DNA of 64,000 bases from Saccostrea echinata (taxonomy: Eukaryota): positions 5,952,001-6,016,000 of the forward strand of contig NW_026889782.1 in assembly GCF_033153115.1 (NCBI RefSeq), written 5' to 3'. The notes beneath the pieces were generated by a model. That model had not been told where the DNA came from. It was given only the letters and a program-made list of their open reading frames with translations, and searched no databases. A program made the translations under genes and the position numbers. This document shows, piece after piece, positions 1-10,400 of this stretch. Within the stretch, counting starts at the first letter, position 1. Each line of letters starts with the position of its first letter.

Positions 1-605
1 TAAATTAGCAAGAAAGCATGCACATGTGTTCTGATTGTCTGACACAAAAAATCTCAATAACCTTCTTGTTTTTTGTCATAATACTTTGAAATTTAAAACG
101 TACTCATACATAAGGAGGTTCCAAATTAAGATGTATATGAGATATCATGAAAAATTGTGTGCATGCACGTGTGCTGCAATTTGATTGGTTTAAACTTTAA
201 ATGGCTGTAACTTTCTTAGTTTTCAACAAAACAGGATAAAATTTCGAAGATAGGTAGGTATAATGGGTTCCTATAGGTGATGCTATCAAAATTGAATGCT
301 AAGAACGTCCATGAACTTGTGCTGAATTCTAATTGACTAATACTTATATGGCTGTATCTCTCATAGTTTTTAATGAAAATGTTTGAGATTTCTTACATAG
401 TATTTATTATGAGTCTTGGGGAAGACATGAGAAATATCTGGAAAACAAGGGTATGAGTGAGCTATGAAATCTGATTGGTTAATACTCAAAAGACTATATC
501 GGGTGTTATTTCTTGATTAAATATTTCTGAAAATAAGATGTAGATTTATTACACAAAGAATTGCCTAATTTAATAAAGGGGCCCATAAGGGAGTGAGGGA
601 GGGTG
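1..605 (+). mobile_element. Degenerate, 3'-truncated remnant of a HINE family, related to the element at 50845-52475
   Basis: Repeated motifs 'gcatgcacatgtg', 'ctgattggtt' and 'ttgattggtt' are reverse complements of motifs at 51780-52140. 'ggggcccataagggagtgagggagg' (578-602) resembles the subterminal part of that element. Confidence 0.55.
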
Positions 606-1663
606 TACTGGTAAGTCTAAGTGCTACCTTTCTCTACCTTTTTTAATTTACTTAAAACCAGTAGAGCTACTGTCTCATCAAAGACTTCTGGATTGAGGGT
701 GCTCTTATACATTTAGGTTTATTGAACCCTGTAATCTTTATTTCTAGTTGCCTGAAGGAGTAATGCTTTCCATGTAGGTGGTAATTATTTTGTTGCTGTT
801 GTTTTCTGAGCTTCATTACCAATTTGACATTAAAAATCATTATGCATTGTTTTGTACTGAACAGAAAAATAGGAAAAATAATTCTTCCTAAATCTAAAGG
901 TGAGGTATTTGCAAGAATGTATAGTATGATCAATGATGATAGCTACTTTCAATGTTGCTATTATATATATATATATCATGATGGTAAATTTGTCTAGAGA
1001 GCTTTGCTGATTAAGAATTGAATTAAATGTTGTTTGTTATTACAGGAGTCTGGAAAATAATAATAGGAACTTCTATATTAGCCTTTGTGTTCATATTTTT
1101 CCAAAAACTGTTGATATTATTAGTAGTACAAAGCCATTCTGTTTTAGAGAATTTATGACGTTTGAAAATGTTACATAGTACTTAAAATATTTCTAGCATA
1201 GTAATCTTGTATATAATATTTGATTTAATCTGATTTCACTTAATTTTTATTCCCCGCCATGAATTTAGCCATGGCATCGGGGCTCGACATTAACACTTGT
1301 CCAGTACCAGTGGAAAAAAAATTGAGGACAAGTGAATATTGCTGGGCACTTTTTTGATTGGACAAGGGCTTTTATATTTAAAGAAGTAATTCAAATAATA
1401 AAAAGAACGACTGGTGAATTGTTTATCTGTAGTTCAAAGATGGAAGCAGTGCATGAAAAAAAAAATTGTATCCCGATCAATCTCTATATAATTGAGTCAC
1501 ACTCAATCGGGATCAAAGTTCACTAATTGCGTACTACTTTCAATTTTAAATTGCAAAGGGAAAAGGCATGAATCTTAGGAAGTTTTGATTCTCCAGATCC
1601 AGCACAATTTCACTTGTGTTCATTTTTGTTGTTGACAGAAAGTCTAGATAAAATTTTGTTTTA

Positions 1664-2094
1664 GGCCAAAAAAAATTATGTTTGTTTCCTGTAACATTCC
1701 TAAAAAATCAAGGGTTGGTCAGGATTTTTTTTTTTATTATTATTTTTTTATTTTTTGGCTAATGAATAATAGGGTCAAACATCCCCAGACTCAATTAACC
1801 AGGTGCGATATTTACAGCGGACACCCAGCATGGCGGTAGAAAACGACTTCTAAAAGTTGTGGGGGAAATGCTTGATGTTACAATAATGATTACTCTTTAT
1901 ATTTAAGATAAATGTTGACTAGGTTGGCATGTTTTTTTTTTTTTTTTATCTCAAATAAAGTTACAATTTAATTTTTTGTATATAATGAAGTGGCTGATTG
2001 ATCAAACGCAGATTTTGCTGAGAAAAAAAATCCACCTGGGGGTAATTGGTATGGGTCGGTCGGGTTACAGGAAACAAATGATTTTTTTTAGGCC
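1664..2094. mobile_element. MITE, PIF/Harbinger-like
   Basis: Terminal inverted repeats 'ggccaaaaaaaaattatgtttgtttcctgtaac' / 'gttacaggaaacaaatgattttttttaggcc'. Flanks are tta / ttt (imperfect 3-bp TWA-type TSD). Confidence 0.7.
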
Positions 2095-2199
2095 TTTTGT
2101 TTTTTGTAATTATCAGTAACATCACAAATGAATCAAGCATAATGGACTTTTTAAAAGTAATGCAGTGCTGTTGTTTTCAAGTTAACAATATTTTTTTTT

Positions 2200-2560
2200 T
2201 ACCTTGACCTTTCCTTTGACCATGACCTCACTTATCAGAAATTTGTGTTGAGCTCAGTTTTACAGAAATTATTCAAGATTTTTTTAATGAAATAGACAAA
2301 ATATTTTTATGAAACTTCATATGCTGATAAATACTGATGAGAGGTATTCAACTGCATAAACACTTTTTGACACTGACCTTGACCTCACTTATCAAAAAAT
2401 GTGTTTGGCTCAGCTTTTTAGAAACTATTCAAGATTTATTTCTTTTCATCAAACTTCATATAATGATAAATATTGATGTTAGCAGCTGTTCAACTACATC
2501 AACAGTTTTTGTCCTTGATCTTTCGTTTGACCTTGAGCACCATTTTTATCAAAATAAGTG
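2200..2560 (+). repeat. Degenerate tandem repeat (~150 bp, 2-3 copies), probably a HINE-type satellite remnant
   Basis: The block 'tgacc(a/t)tgacctcacttatca...gctcag..ttt..agaaa.tattcaagatt' occurs at ~2217 and ~2374, and partially at ~2528. Confidence 0.5.
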
Positions 2561-2655
2561 TAGTCTTGTAGATATATTGCAAGTGCCCGGGTTTTTAGAT
2601 TTCCCTGCAAATGCAGTTCAAGAACAACTCATATGTCATGGTCCAATAAACAGTA

Positions 2656-2849
2656 CTGTAAATGTATTATATATTTGGAGGAAATTGATTTTTCAGCAAG
2701 TTCGTGAAGATTTGAGTTTGTGAATTTCTGAATGTGCATAATATGAATGTATGTATAAAAGACATTTGTGATGTACTTGATTTGATGAAAGCTCCTTTCT
2801 GCCAAAGGTGTTTAAAAAGAACACACAGCCAAATATAATACGTTAACAG
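2656..2849. mobile_element. Short TA-flanked MITE (Tc1/mariner-like)
   Basis: Ends read ta|ctgtaaatgtattatatatttgg ... ccaaatataatacgttaacag|ta: imperfect TIRs with TA on both sides. Confidence 0.55.
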
Positions 2850-4127
2850 TATTTATAAGCGATTATAAACAAAATGGTGTCAATCAATAACTGATGAAGT
2901 ATTGTCAAAAGAAACCTTTTGTGAATTTTCATGTAGCATTGCAGCTAAATAGAGTAGTAGGTAAGAAAAAACTGATAAGTATTTTTATGCAAAGGATAAG
3001 CAATATGAAAATTTCAGCTAGCTTTAAGATATACACGCTATATAAATGCAATTTCTTATGTGAAACAAAATGATTAAATGAATTGAGAAACATGATGTGT
3101 AATAAAAAAATAATTACTTTCCACAAAGTTTTACTAAATAAGTTGTAATTACAAAACAATTAAGCAAGATCTGCAATTAAAAATTCAGCCTATTCATGAA
3201 TATTGATGAAGGAAGTGCGTAAGCAATATATAGACATGCATGTCCCCGGGAAATCATAGACAACTAGGTACATTGCATTTTGACTACGATTTCGAATAAA
3301 AGTTAATATCTGTCATTACAGAGTAGATGGTTAATACTGGTTGTTTTCAAAGATAAGTATCTTTAAGCATAAAACGTATGCCATCCATATCAAAGTTATT
3401 TTGTATACCAAACAGCCTACCTCGTTTTCTTGATGCCATTTTTGTTTATCAATCTAAAAGTAGCGATGGTGTCACATGATGCATGAATTTAAATAGAGGC
3501 ATTACTTTCCTAGTAGGATATTAAAGAAATAATTATAATTTGAGATCTTTATAATGCATTCATTTCCAATTGTGTAATTTACAATATTTTCGTATCTTTA
3601 TTTGGTAAACAAAATAAATAAATTTCCAACTTTATTTTTAACTGACGCAAGTTATAGCGTGTATATCTTGAAGTTGTTTTTTTTCATCTGATCACAAGAA
3701 ATGAATGCAGCTTTTGATAGGTAATTGATATTTGTGCCATTACTTTAGTACAATTTAGATGTTTTCAACTAAGTTCATTTGGAAAAAGAAAAATAGGCCC
3801 AACCTTACCTAGTGTGGCTGTAAATTTAATGAATATGTTTAAAACAGTTCCTTCTGTAGTGTATTGTATGATATCAGGTTTACTGTTATCTGTGATTAGA
3901 CAGCTTGTATATTCTATGTGTATTCAATTTCAAACTTACTATAAATGAAGTATTTTAATGTTGACCTGTTTTGTAAACACACCCCCCCCCTCCCCCCTAA
4001 TAAGTCTCCTTTGAGCACTAGTGAATTTACACGAGATGCTGATGCATTCATAATTAAATAGAATGCTGTTTTCCAGAAGATTGTTAAGCCATTAATTACA
4101 CATTAAAATAGTCTACAGATTTTTGTG

Positions 4128-4210
4128 TTTGCCCGATCATGACAAGGAGCACATGGCAGTTGTAATCGGTCGACAAAGGATGCTTACTCCTCCATGGCAC
4201 TTGACCCCAT
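4128..4210 (+). mobile_element. 3' tail fragment of a Penelope-like retroelement
   Basis: 'ccgatcatgacaaggagcacatggc...ggatgcttactcctccatggcac' is shared with many copies in the window that follow RT C-terminal coding remnants. Confidence 0.6.
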
Positions 4211-4442
4211 AAAAGCCATGGCTTTGCAATAATTTGACTGTGGTTATACTGCTCTTGAGAAAAGTTTAATTAGTTTTTCATATTAAATCTTCAACTCTAA
4301 AGGTCCACCTTAGGCCCAGGGTTATACAAGTTAATTTAGGCAGATGTATTGTTAAAAAATACATAAAGTAAGTAAATATTAGATTAAGGAATTCTGATTG
4401 AATTAAAAGAAGTTGTATATTTTTTTTTTTAGAAACCTGGTG

Positions 4443-7400
4443 ATGCCACGTAAAAGGAACTGGCGCATGGCATTGGCAAAGATGGGGAACCAGAGTCGTG
4501 CCAGCAATGACAATAGACTCGTGGATACTAGCCACGTAAAAAATAGTACAAAGGACCCAACAATTGACGTAACAGATGACGGACCTTTGAGACTCGTGGA
4601 CACTAGCCACGTAAAAAATAGTACAAAGGACCGGGGGGATACTGCCTCCTTAAAAAGAGTACTAGATTTGCCTTCGGGCGCCAGTAACATTGCAAATTTG
4701 CCTTCGGGCGCCAGTAACATTGCAAATTTGCCTTCGGGCGCCAGTAACATTGCAAATTTGCCTTCGGGCACTATGAACTCTGCAAATTTTCCTTCGGGCA
4801 CTATGAACTCTGCAAAATTGCCTTTGAGCACTATGAACTCTGCAAATTTGCCTTCGGGCACTATGAACTCTGCAAATTTGCCTTCGGGCACTGTGAACTC
4901 TGCAAATTTGTCTTCGGGCACTATGAACTCTGCAAATTTGCCTTCAGGCACTATGAACTCTGCCAATATGTCTTCTGGGTCTCTGAACTGGGATAGTTTG
5001 TCTTCCAGCGTAATAATTTCAAACACATTACAAACAAATTTCATGAACTTAGAAAATATGGCTTCTTATCTTAAGAATACTGACAATTTTTCTTTAGATA
5101 CAAAAAACACAACTGAGTGTTCCTGTTGCTCTGAACAGTCTACATACGAGTCTTTAATGGAGAAAAATTTGTCTGTGACAAGATTATTTGGGACAATAAA
5201 TCAAGCAAGTAATTTATTTCCAGCTTTTTCTAGAGGAGTTCAGTGCACATGTAATGCTTTGATGTCCATCATTTTGCAAAATGTGTCAACTTCAGCAGAA
5301 CTTGATGAGGTGCTTTTTGCTGGGGATTATTTATTTAGAGTCAGAATTGCAGAATTACAATCAACTGTTCAATTTGTTTCAAAAATGCTACAATTTCAAG
5401 AACTTCCAAAGTTTGTTAATGTGCATGACAATGAGTATGAAATATGCTATTTTGAACAGATCTATGGAACAGTGACTCATATAGATTGGGATCAGTCATG
5501 TCAAAGTAATAATTTGAAGGAAGGCATTGAGAAACTCTTTACAAGATACAATCAAGGATTAATTATAGTTGGAGGAATCTGTTCTGCAATATATATGGAT
5601 GACATGAGCTGTCCTGTATTTTTTGATTCACATTCTCATGGAAAAGATGGTCTTTCATGTGCAGATGGACAGGCTGTAAAAATCACTTTTGGAAATATTG
5701 ATCAACTTGTGGATTACATGTTTGCATTTTATCAAAGTTGTAATATTTCAATGATAAGCCAGTTTGAGATTCAACCAGTGTCTGTAACACAAAAAACAAG
5801 TGTTTCCATTTCAGGAAGTGAGAGACTTTCTTTAATTGACAAGTATTTTGAGTTTCAAGAGAACATGTCTAGAAAATGTACCATTTCTGAATCATCACAC
5901 GGAAGTAAGAATGAATATATGAGAAACTATATGCGGAAAAGGAGGGAAAACTCGCAGAAAAGAGAGAGGGACAAAGAAAGTACTTTAAGAAGTATGACCA
6001 AAGCAAGACAAAGTAAAGAATTTAAAGAGAAAGAACTGGCTTCCAAAAACAGTTTCAGAAAAAATCCTGAGACAAAGAAGCAGGACAGAGAAAGTTCTTT
6101 GGAAAGTAAAAATAAAGCAAGAAAAAGTAAAGAATTTAAAGACAAAGAACTTGCTTCCAAACAAAGGGTCAGAGAAAATCCTGAGACAAAGCTCAAGGAT
6201 AGAGAAAGTACCTTAAAATGTATGAACAAGGCAAGAAAAAGTAAAGAATTTAAAGACAAAGAACTTGTTTCCAAACAAAGGGTCAGAGAAAATCCCAAGA
6301 GAAAGCTCAAGGACAGAGAAAGTACCTTAAAATGTATGAACATGGCAAGAAAAAGTAAAGAATTTAAAGACAGAGAACTTACTTCCAAACAAAGGGTCAG
6401 AGAAAATCCTGAGACAAAGCTCAAGGACAGAGAAAGTACCTTAAAATGTATGAACAAGGCAAGACTAAATACAGTATTTTGTTTAAAAGAAAGAGAAGCA
6501 AAGAAAAAGAAGAGAGACAATGTACAGCAGCTTGAGAAGGAACGGCTTTGTAAACAGCACAGTAGAAGAAATTACAGAGAAAAAGAAAAAGAGAGTGAAA
6601 GAATTTCTAAAGCTAAAAGGAGGCTTGATGCAGAATTTACAGACCATGAAAACAAATTAATGAAGAAAAGGTGTCATGGTAATTCTTTGGAAGATTGCAT
6701 AAAGAAATTTCATGAACAAGTGAAAATTGGTCCAATTTATGTGTGTACATGTTGTCATCAGACTTGGTTTTTGAAAAGCATAGTCAATCTAAATACAACT
6801 AATCTTAATGCTAGCAGTAAAAGTATTTGTACTGGCTTAAGATCTGTGGATGGTATAGAATGGCTATGTTTAACCTGCTTATCAGCTCTAAGGGATGGGA
6901 AAATTCCAAGACTTTCAGTTAAAAATGGAATGAAATGGCCTGATAAACCAGATGCTTTGAATTTACACCCATTGGAAGAGAGGTTGATATCTCAACGCAT
7001 ACCATTTATGCAAATTAGAGAATTACCAAGAGGAGGTCAAATGTCAGTCAAAGGAAATATTGTAAATGTTCCAGTTGATATTCAGCCAACTGTAAATGCC
7101 CTTCCGCGACAAATTGATGAGCATGTGACTATAGCTGTAAAATTAAAGAAAAGATTATCTCACAAATCAGCATGCTTCACAGAAAATGTTCGTCCAAATG
7201 TGGTAATAAATGCTTTACAATGGCTTATGAAAAATAGTGAGTTGTATAAAAATTCAGGTATAGTGATAGACCATTCTTGGAGAGGTGACATTGAAAAAAG
7301 TAACGAGGAAACAGTACAAGAACTGATAGGATCTTCAAATGATAGAGATGATCGTGAATCTGAAGGAAATGATTATGGTTTTTGTGAAGTTTCTTCAGAT

Positions 7401-10400
7401 GATTGCATTCAAGGCAATTCTGATACACTTGTTGATGAAGCAGACTTTGATACAAATAAACTCTATGTGTTTGCCCCTGGAGAAAACCAAAAACCAGTAA
7501 GTTTATTTACAGATAAAGATGCAGAATATCTCTGTTTTCCGACAATATTTTGTGGTCATCGGAGAACTGAAAGTGAGGAAAGGGAAGTTCCAGTACACTA
7601 CAGTGATATTGCAAAATGGGAGTTGCGCAGTGTTGATAGACGAGCAGCACAATCTGTACCGAACATCTTTTTTAAATTGAAAAAAATTCAAATTAAGCAA
7701 GTTAGTGATAAAGTTAACTTGGCATTGAGGAGATGTAAATCAGAGGGTAAGAAAATCACTGCTGAACAAGTTTTAAATCCAGCCTCTGCAGAAAAAATTG
7801 TAAGATTAAATGAAGGGTATTATATATTCAGAACCCTTAGAAATTCTCCTGCATATCTTTCATCTAAAAAGAAGGATGTGTTTGCCATGATAAGGCAGTT
7901 GGGTCTTCCAACCTGGTTTATTTCTCTCTCATCAGCTGATACCAGATGGCAAGATCTGCTAAAAACATTGGCAACACTAGATGGAAAAACCCTGTCACAA
8001 GAAGAACTAGAGGATTTGAATTGGAATGAAAAATCAAAACTAGTTAAACAAGATCCAGTGACGTGTGCAAGATTTTTCGACAACCGAGTTCAACTCTTCA
8101 TTAATACCTTTCTGAAGAGTCCTCACAATCCTCTTGGTGTTGTTACTGATGTGTTTCGAAGAGTAGAATTCCAAAACCGAGGTTCGCCACATATTCATAT
8201 GCTGGTATGGACAAGTGATGCTCCAAAGCATAAAGAAAATAGCAATGAGGAAATTGAAGCTTATGTAGATGAATATGTCACATGTGGTTTGCAGGAAAAT
8301 AATCCTCAAATGAAGCAGCTTGTAGAGCTTCAAGTACATAAACACTCAAAGACTTGCAAGAAAGGTGGTAAATCTGTCTGCAGATTTGGATTTCCATTGC
8401 CACCTTTGCCCAAAACCATGCTTCTTGAACCCTTGGATGCTGATATTGAGCATTATAGAAAGATATATTCTGATATTCAGAAGAAAATGAATGATTACAA
8501 AGATGGTTGCAGTTTGGACTATGATTCCTTCTTAGAGACTGTTGTAGAGATGTGCGAGGATGAGTATATAAAATGTATTCGAGCTTCATTGAAAGGTCCC
8601 AAAATGTTTCTCAAGAGAAGTCCATCTGAAATGAGAGTGAATTACTATAATCCATTAGTGCTAAAGGCTTGGAATGCTAACTTAGATATTCAGTTTGTAC
8701 TTGATCCTTATGCCTGTGCCACATACATTGTTGCTTACATCAGCAAATCTCAAAGAGGAATAAGTGCAATGCTTGATAAAGCATCTCAAGAAGCTGCAGA
8801 GGGAAATATGGATCTTAAGCGTCAAGTTCGACATATTGGAAACAAGTTCCTAAACTTTGTTGAGGTCAGTGCACAAGAGGCAAGTTACTTGATCCTTCAG
8901 ATGCCACTTACACAAGCTAGTAGAGAGGTTGTTTTTATAAATACCTCACCACCTGAGGACAGAGTTTTCTTGCTCAAACATCAAGATGAACTGAATGAGT
9001 TACCAAAAGACTCAACTGATATAAAGGCAGATGGTATGATACAGAGATATGCAAGAAGACCAAAACAACTAGAAAATTGGTGTTTAGCTGATGTTGTTTC
9101 TGTTGTTTCTTTCCCAAAAGAAATGCATAAAGATGTACAGGAGGAAGTGAATGATGATAACCCAGAAGAAAATTCTCAAGAAACTTTTTTTACTGATCAG
9201 GATGTGTTAGTTCATTTAAAAAATGGGGTTAAGATCAGAAGACGAAAAAACAAACGAGTTATTAGATATGTAGGGTACAGCCAAAAGACAAATTCTGAAC
9301 AGTATTACAGAGAAAGAATTCTTCTTTTTCTGCCTTGGAGAAATGAGAATACTGACCTGCTTGGTGGTTTTCAAACTTATGAACAGCACTACAGGCAACA
9401 AGCATGTATAATACAAGTGAAGCAAAAACAGTATGAGCATTTTGTGGATGAATTAGAACAAGCTCGACTTCAAGCTGAAGAAGATCTTGATAATATGGAG
9501 ACAGTAGCACCAAATACAGAACATGCTGAGGCAGAAGATGCAGAGATAAGTTCTGAACCATCAAAGGAATTTGTTCATTTTGATCCTGATACAGTTCAAC
9601 ACAGAGATTTTGATATTGGTCCAGAACTTGGCTTGTCTTCGAAAGTATCTGAAACAGAAATGAGTGCTGTCCGCATTCCCGATGAACAGTATTATAAACT
9701 TTTGCAATCCCTGAATACAAAGCAGAGAGAATTTTACAATCATGTGACAAACTGGATTCAAATCAGAGATGAACCATTATATGCTTTTCTTACTGGTGGA
9801 GCAGGTGCAGGAAAATCGGTGGTTATTGATGCCATTTTTCAAACATTACACAGAATATTGTACTCAAAAGAAGGTGAAAACCCAGATGATATTAGAATAT
9901 TACTTTGTGCTCACACTGGAAAAGCTGCATACAACATCAAAGGGACTACTATTGCTTCAGCATTTCACAGAAAAATGTATCAAACTCAGCAGCACATGAG
10001 TGCTGATGAATTGAACTCGTTTAGGACAAAGTACCGAAATTTGTCAGTTGTGTTAATAGATGAAATTTCAATGGTAGGGAATAATATGCTGACATTCATA
10101 AATGATAGACTTCAGCAACTTACTGGTAGAAAACAAGATTTTGGCGGTATAAGTATCATAGCTGTTGGTGATTTGTATCAGTTACCACCTGTTGGAGACA
10201 AGTGGATTTTCAAAGACCTTTCTAATCCAGGTCAGAGTTTAGCAAAAAATTTGTGGCATGAGCATTTTCACATGCATGAATTAACTGAAATTATGAGACA
10301 AAAGGATGACCTCAGATTTGCAGAAATGTTGAATAGACTTCGTGAAAACAAGATGACAGATGAAGACAAAGAACTCATTACTCAACGTTTCATCAGGCAA

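Follow-up and report, generated by a model that had tools for sequence, protein, structure and literature searches.

Viral tegument-like deubiquitinases (VTDs, peptidase C76 type) have been reported in Helentron transposons, together with a crystal structure and with ubiquitin and NEDD8 assays, and molluscs are among the hosts (Erven et al. 2022, PMC9741609). In that study, the VTDs of zebrafish Helitrons all react with Ub-PA, two of the three also react with NEDD8-PA, and K48 and K63 chains are preferred. The substitutions C322A, D451A, and H453A in zebrafish DrT1-VTD2 each abolish activity, and loss of D376 lowers it (PMC9741609). The HELIANO study of 2024 also placed Herpes_teg_N within the RepHel frame, nearly always in HLE2 elements (PMC11417382). 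Since both the module and its enzymatic activity are already published, the VTD domain itself is no discovery, and the family is not new, as an earlier note on this DNA had said. Published work leaves the question of why a transposon carries a deubiquitinase.

The window, which is the whole stretch of 64,000 nucleotides from Saccostrea echinata analyzed here, contains an open reading frame of 2460 amino acids that belongs to a Helentron (HLE2) element of about 20.0 kb. Our preferred reading, to which we assign a probability of roughly 0.6, is that this frame encodes a Helentron transposase with a triad-intact N-terminal VTD, predicted to be an active deubiquitinase that likely spares the transposase from degradation. 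The features of the element, numbered from the first base of the window, are as follows.

1–15784, + strand: portion of the element that the window covers; the 5' end is found 4242 bases before base 1 (in locus L079, near 5759)
4418–4432, + strand: likely splice acceptor, a pyrimidine tract followed by AG, about 10 bases upstream of the ATG
4443–11825, + strand: VTD-RepHel-APE open reading frame of 2460 amino acids, with no stop and no N
4666–4989, + strand: 30-bp (10-amino-acid) tandem repeat upstream of the VTD, differing in copy number among copies of the element
5175–5790, + strand: VTD domain, amino acids ~245–450
5244–5246, + strand: codon TGC of the catalytic Cys268, placed by alignment to 8ADD
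5625–5633, + strand: Asp395-Ser-His397, the D-x-H motif, placed by alignment to 8ADD (GAT at 5625, CAT at 5631)
5969–6464, + strand: 114-bp (38-amino-acid) basic tandem repeat downstream of the VTD
6744–6892, + strand: CxCC and CxxC zinc-finger-like motifs, read by eye and without a profile match
6897–7277, + strand: DUF6570, above the Pfam cut-off
7635–8750, + strand: Rep (HUH) domain, with motif 2 FRRVEFQNRGSPHIH (VEF at 8163) and the YIVAYISK tyrosines near 8721
9711–11040, + strand: PIF1 helicase, above the Pfam cut-off (GGAGAGKS at 9795, LIDEISM at 10053)
11193–11801, + strand: AP-type endonuclease with motifs NARSL, GDYN, and SDH (Pfam E 8.9e-5)
15750–15784, + strand: 3' end of the element, a 13-bp subterminal inverted repeat ACTCAGGTGACCT and a 14-bp palindrome AGGCCCATGGGCCT

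The in-frame fusion to a rolling-circle transposase that the earlier note described is present: VTD, Rep, PIF1, and the endonuclease share one uninterrupted frame, and the only run of N in the window (29627–29766) lies outside it. All of the motifs quoted in that note also lie in this frame, with FGTINQAS at amino acid 249 (nucleotide 5187), VQCTCNAL at 266, ELDEVLFAGDYL at 286, LQFQELP at 316, FFDSHSHG at 393, and FEIQPV at 441. The note had named the catalytic codons correctly; its span of amino acids ~255–460 hit the domain but was slightly displaced, the domain lying about 10 residues earlier.

Assignment of the domain to the C76/VTD family holds. The VTD scores 38.3 bits against Pfam Herpes_teg_N (E 1.4e-9), above the curated cut-off of 25, and its sole match among PDB sequences is 8ADD, the zebrafish Helitron domain DrT1-VTD2 (E 9.2e-23); as sequence matches, both exceed chance. 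A structure model built from an alignment of 82 sequences has a pLDDT of 96.5 and is predicted to adopt a papain-like fold of the M48/8ADD type. Its best fold match is 8ADD (TM 0.93, rmsd 1.5 Å, 30% identity), followed by the herpesvirus enzyme M48 (PDB 2J7Q; TM 0.77–0.78, 13–14% identity); the match to the Waddlia VTD is lower (TM 0.52–0.55). The lowest-confidence block of the model, residues 101–110, is the counterpart of a loop that is flexible in 8ADD. Its nearest solved relative thus comes from a transposon and not from a virus.

Cys268, Asp395, and His397 align with the catalytic motifs of 8ADD, so that the residues described earlier as intact are all present. Glu320 aligns with E377 of DrT1-VTD2, which together with D376 forms an acidic pair for binding the tail of ubiquitin; Gln319 stands where DrT1-VTD2 has D376, and the loop residues P405/A406/L407 are not conserved. 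The rate or specificity of the window VTD may therefore differ from that of DrT1-VTD2. Among 17 VTDs of the genome, the first position of the acidic pair varies widely even where the triad is intact, and the second is always E or D. By analogy with the zebrafish enzymes, the window VTD is predicted to be active and would cleave ubiquitin (K48, K63, and possibly K11) and perhaps NEDD8, which is consistent with the DUB/deneddylase activity proposed at the outset.

The remainder of the frame places the element among Helentrons. Rep scores above the Pfam cut-off for Helitron_like_N, and its motif 2 bears both Helentron signatures, F/Y-x-R and the Ser in RGSPH, as defined in PMC4067079. DUF6570 is a marker of HLE2 transposases (PMC11417382). 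The AP endonuclease (Exo_endo_phos) scores 22.8 bits, below its cut-off of 24.5; its motifs are nevertheless present. A 53-bp palindrome at 11901–11953, just past the stop codon, is conserved in most copies.

Both ends of the element were located. Homology stops sharply at 15784, and 23 of 30 loci share this end although their flanks, mostly rich in T, are unrelated; the window copy has just one T there, then A. The 5' end consists of a T run, the subterminal inverted repeat (subTIR), an inner inverted repeat, and a microsatellite, and upstream extension of 15 loci revealed a matching end in 14, some loci having two or three 5'-end motifs. Because short non-autonomous elements share the 5' motif, the 5' end of the window copy was assigned by collinearity with L059. 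The 5' hairpin exceeds shuffled sequences in stability by a wide margin (z -9.3); the 3' hairpin does not (z -0.69), though it is conserved. Inside the element, ~8.7 kb of mostly non-coding DNA lies upstream of the reading frame and 4 kb lies downstream. These parts contain no stop-to-stop frame longer than 130 amino acids that could represent RPA, OTU, or another extra frame, and tblastx of the non-ORF parts against six copies gave no convincing conserved peptide, a search that small exons could escape.

Several repeats lie in or near the element. A ~350-bp insert at 12604–12997, which sister copies carry upstream of the frame (~71% alike) or inverted elsewhere, is likely to be a small mobile repeat that sits within the element; a 55-bp tandem array occupies 13301–13632 in the 3' part. 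Beyond the element, a second Helentron-type 5' end at 21267–22535 has the same 13-bp subTIR at 21272 and 21286 and is followed by a 168-bp tandem array (21593–22535); it resembles an oyster HINE non-autonomous element. At 29982–30902, 31 tandem copies of a 30-bp unit give rise to spurious open reading frames on both strands.

The public gene model P0006 bears on whether the element makes the VTD at all. It corresponds exactly to amino acids 340–2460, uses a short upstream exon (3701–3720), and skips 4611–5459, which drops amino acids 57–339; since this in-frame intron removes Cys268, the VTD of the locus is truncated in the protein record. Taken at face value, the skipped segment favors a reading in which the VTD is a passenger, or mostly spliced out, and useless to the element. 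Yet 11 of 30 copies have GAG at the acceptor of P0006, and contigs of related copies from RNA libraries, which may be DNA, cross 4611 and 5459 unspliced (records 25, 27, and 17). Of the 14 copies aligned at the upstream donor (3721), just 3 conserve it, the P0006 splice joint was not found among the joints listed in the RNA-library contigs, and the related gene models P0007, P0009, and P0019 retain the whole VTD. P0006 is probably a prediction artefact. An acceptor-like tract precedes the ATG in all 26 copies with a located start (of 30), and in one RNA-library contig the alignment begins at 4431, preceded by 109 letters that do not align. Nine RNA runs contain 5–8% of the words, and contigs from four runs cover the reading frame; these contigs represent related copies, possibly DNA, and carry neither strand nor level.

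Copies of the element in the genome provided a second view of the passenger reading. A DNA search gave at least 34 matches, of which 29 long ones and the window were used as 30 copies after four matches of ~55 bases were dropped. Three of the 30 (the window, L027, and L047) have an uninterrupted frame between the start codon and the last endonuclease motif. In L059 and L075 the open stretch starts just upstream of the VTD and reaches that motif, and the frames of L025 and L035 stop early within the endonuclease. Cys268 is encoded by TGC in 30 of 30 copies and His397 is kept in 29 of 29 covered copies; Asp395 is kept in 26 of 29. The loss of Asp395 in the other three (L023, L041, and L051), a G-to-T change to Tyr at the codon matching window 5625, would suit a domain that no longer matters. 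However, these are unrelated copies whose sisters keep Asp, and each altered G adjoins a T run: the change arose three times independently, at a mutation hot spot or through assembly error.

Purifying selection on the VTD also speaks against a passenger. Mean pairwise dN/dS is 0.23 for the VTD (406 copy pairs), 0.10 for Rep, 0.13 for PIF1, and 0.28 for the endonuclease, the pairs being non-independent; constraint on the VTD is about equal to that on the endonuclease and weaker than that on Rep. VTD changes common to two or more copies comprise 86 non-synonymous and 87 synonymous substitutions (omega 0.25), and private changes comprise 75 and 34 (omega 0.55; Fisher p 0.002 for shared versus private). 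The lower omega of shared changes indicates that the VTD was under selection in the lineages that went on transposing. We regard the passenger reading as the least probable of those considered here. The copy nearest to the window is 97.5% identical, so other copies are younger than that of the window; sister subfamilies seem to have been active recently, judging by their dispersed copies and short terminal branches.

These selection data also fit a deubiquitinase or deneddylase that would act on host proteins and switch off cullin ligases, ubiquitin-dependent silencing, or immune signals, in the manner of herpesvirus BPLF1. DrT1-VTD1 and DrT1-VTD2 cleave NEDD8-AMC better than BPLF1 does, and a role in the germline has been speculated on (PMC9741609). 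Against this stands the negligible NEDD8 activity of DrT2-VTD in the same source, which argues that deneddylation is not a common trait, and fusion in frame with the transposase would more simply fit action in cis. Host targets thus make a tentative alternative that we consider rather unlikely.

The wider family was examined in the genome and beyond it. P0001 has at least 127 matches in the genome (150 of 189 candidates scored), and DUF6570 has at least 150 (of 244 candidates). From the 150 DUF6570 matches we picked 20 HLE2 loci by hand, not at random, for long frames and diversity. In searches of each locus's longest frame, Pfam detects a VTD at 16 of these loci and an OTU domain at 15, and a local profile detected a broken VTD in L113; 18 of the 20 carry a VTD, an OTU, or both. 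L094 and L095 showed neither, which indicates that a deubiquitinase is not needed by every HLE2 element. L111 and L112 have the OTU ahead of the VTD, and the reverse order is seen in L097–L099, L101, L102, L104–L108, and L110. The triad is intact in all 17 diverged VTDs (16 loci and the window), which share 19–39% identity with the window domain. Distances between VTDs are correlated with those between Rep domains (rho 0.69, 0 of 5000 permutations), a value that kin pairs inflate; in the unrooted trees the main clades agree and their order differs, which fits long vertical inheritance. L100 (C13:1535200–1545199), with matches on C9 and C72, represents another VTD Helentron family of four equal-score matches, each with an open frame of 2555 amino acids, that is apparently very young.

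Outside this genome, 454 cluster representatives match at E ≤0.001, and the nearest named proteins among the matches listed are labelled rock oyster and scallop. There are 310 long homologues, of which the best 120 were examined; most form one tight group. C, D, and H are all kept in 104 of the 120, four keep only the D-x-H half, and 12 have no VTD alignment.

These alignments also bear on the self-processing protease suggested in the earlier note, under which the VTD would divide the polyprotein into parts. Viral deubiquitinases often cut polyproteins at di-glycine sites (PMC9741609), and subunit cleavage has been proposed for the OTU domains of Helentrons (PMC4067079). Of six Gly-Gly sites in the frame, one, LPRGG at amino acid 861, resembles a ubiquitin tail, and ELPRGGQ recurs in 118 of the 120 listed homologues. 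But LPRGG sits within DUF6570, and the residue preceding the di-glycine varies (R, K, Q, or H). L100 and L107 lose the di-glycine yet have triad-intact VTDs, and L094 keeps it with no deubiquitinase found. We rejected cleavage at LPRGG because the site is independent of VTD presence and looks like a structural motif of DUF6570. Self-processing is accordingly unsupported and, in our judgment, very unlikely.

We return to the preferred reading, in which the VTD protects its own transposase. By our best guess, it acts on that transposase directly, perhaps at the stage when the protein is covalently linked to DNA. The VTD would stay attached to the transposase and strip degradation tags from it or its partners; removal of the tags would raise transposition, and the OTU domains of related families would serve the same job. 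Protection from proteasomal degradation is a published speculation (PMC9741609).

A narrower proposal concerns repair. HUH transposases bind DNA covalently while working. DNA-protein crosslinks are reported to be ubiquitylated by hosts for removal by SPRTN and the proteasome. The fused deubiquitinase, VTD or OTU, might be an anti-repair device that strips ubiquitin in cis from the transposase-DNA intermediate, letting rolling-circle transposition finish. We hold this doubtful; if true, it would explain both the fixed in-frame fusion and the presence of a deubiquitinase in 18 of 20 sampled loci. The top-ranked matches in the crosslink-repair literature make no mention of Helitron, and the titles and abstracts found report no test of a VTD role in transposition.

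For the question of role, the locus offers a complete element of ~20 kb whose ends are defined, an open frame of 2460 amino acids, and evidence of selection on the VTD in transposing lineages. With one deubiquitinase and no OTU, a Cys-to-Ala change could probe the role of the VTD without masking by a second enzyme.

Many proteins in the viral structure collection BFVD match the VTD model. At rank 3 is Q06VS9, an unnamed viral protein of 810 amino acids (23% identity, TM 0.85), above every herpesvirus protein listed. Its accession series is one that we take to be that of an insect ascovirus; if ascoviral, it would be a case of a non-herpes virus carrying a Helitron-like VTD. The literature found on this question makes no mention of ascoviruses. 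Ranks 27–30 are uncharacterised giant-virus proteins (Indivirus, Catovirus, Tupanvirus, and Yasminevirus; TM 0.51–0.59) that, judged from modeled structures, are possible distant VTD-like proteases. The best 50 BFVD rows, several of them nameless, name no mollusc herpesvirus, and phage records gave no match. Sequence comparison gives no sign of a recent exchange of the VTD with a virus.

Compared with the herpesvirus tegument deubiquitinases M48, UL36, and BPLF1, the window VTD is predicted to have the same fold and triad order (TM 0.77–0.78, profile E 2e-11 to 3e-5). In contrast, identity is 11–20%, and the viral domains are fused to a capsid-tethered tegument protein rather than to a transposase. 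Like Helentrons and HLE2 elements (PMC4067079 and PMC11417382), the window element combines Rep motif 2 with F-x-R and RGSPH, DUF6570, PIF1, and an endonuclease; unlike that comparison set, it yielded no RPA or OTU frame. The 13-bp subTIR with inner inverted repeat, the 5' microsatellite, the 3' palindrome, and T-rich flanks are shared with Helentrons and with the oyster Cg_HINE elements (PMC7492417). The closest counterparts are DrT1-VTD2 and DrT2-VTD of zebrafish, which have the same Cys and D-x-H triad, the same location in the RepHel frame, and a C-terminal AP endonuclease. The window domain is predicted to be active by homology, and its Gln at the D376 position and different substrate loop set it apart from DrT1-VTD2. 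DrT1 carries two VTDs and DrT2 a VTD with an OTU, whereas the window element carries a single VTD and no OTU.
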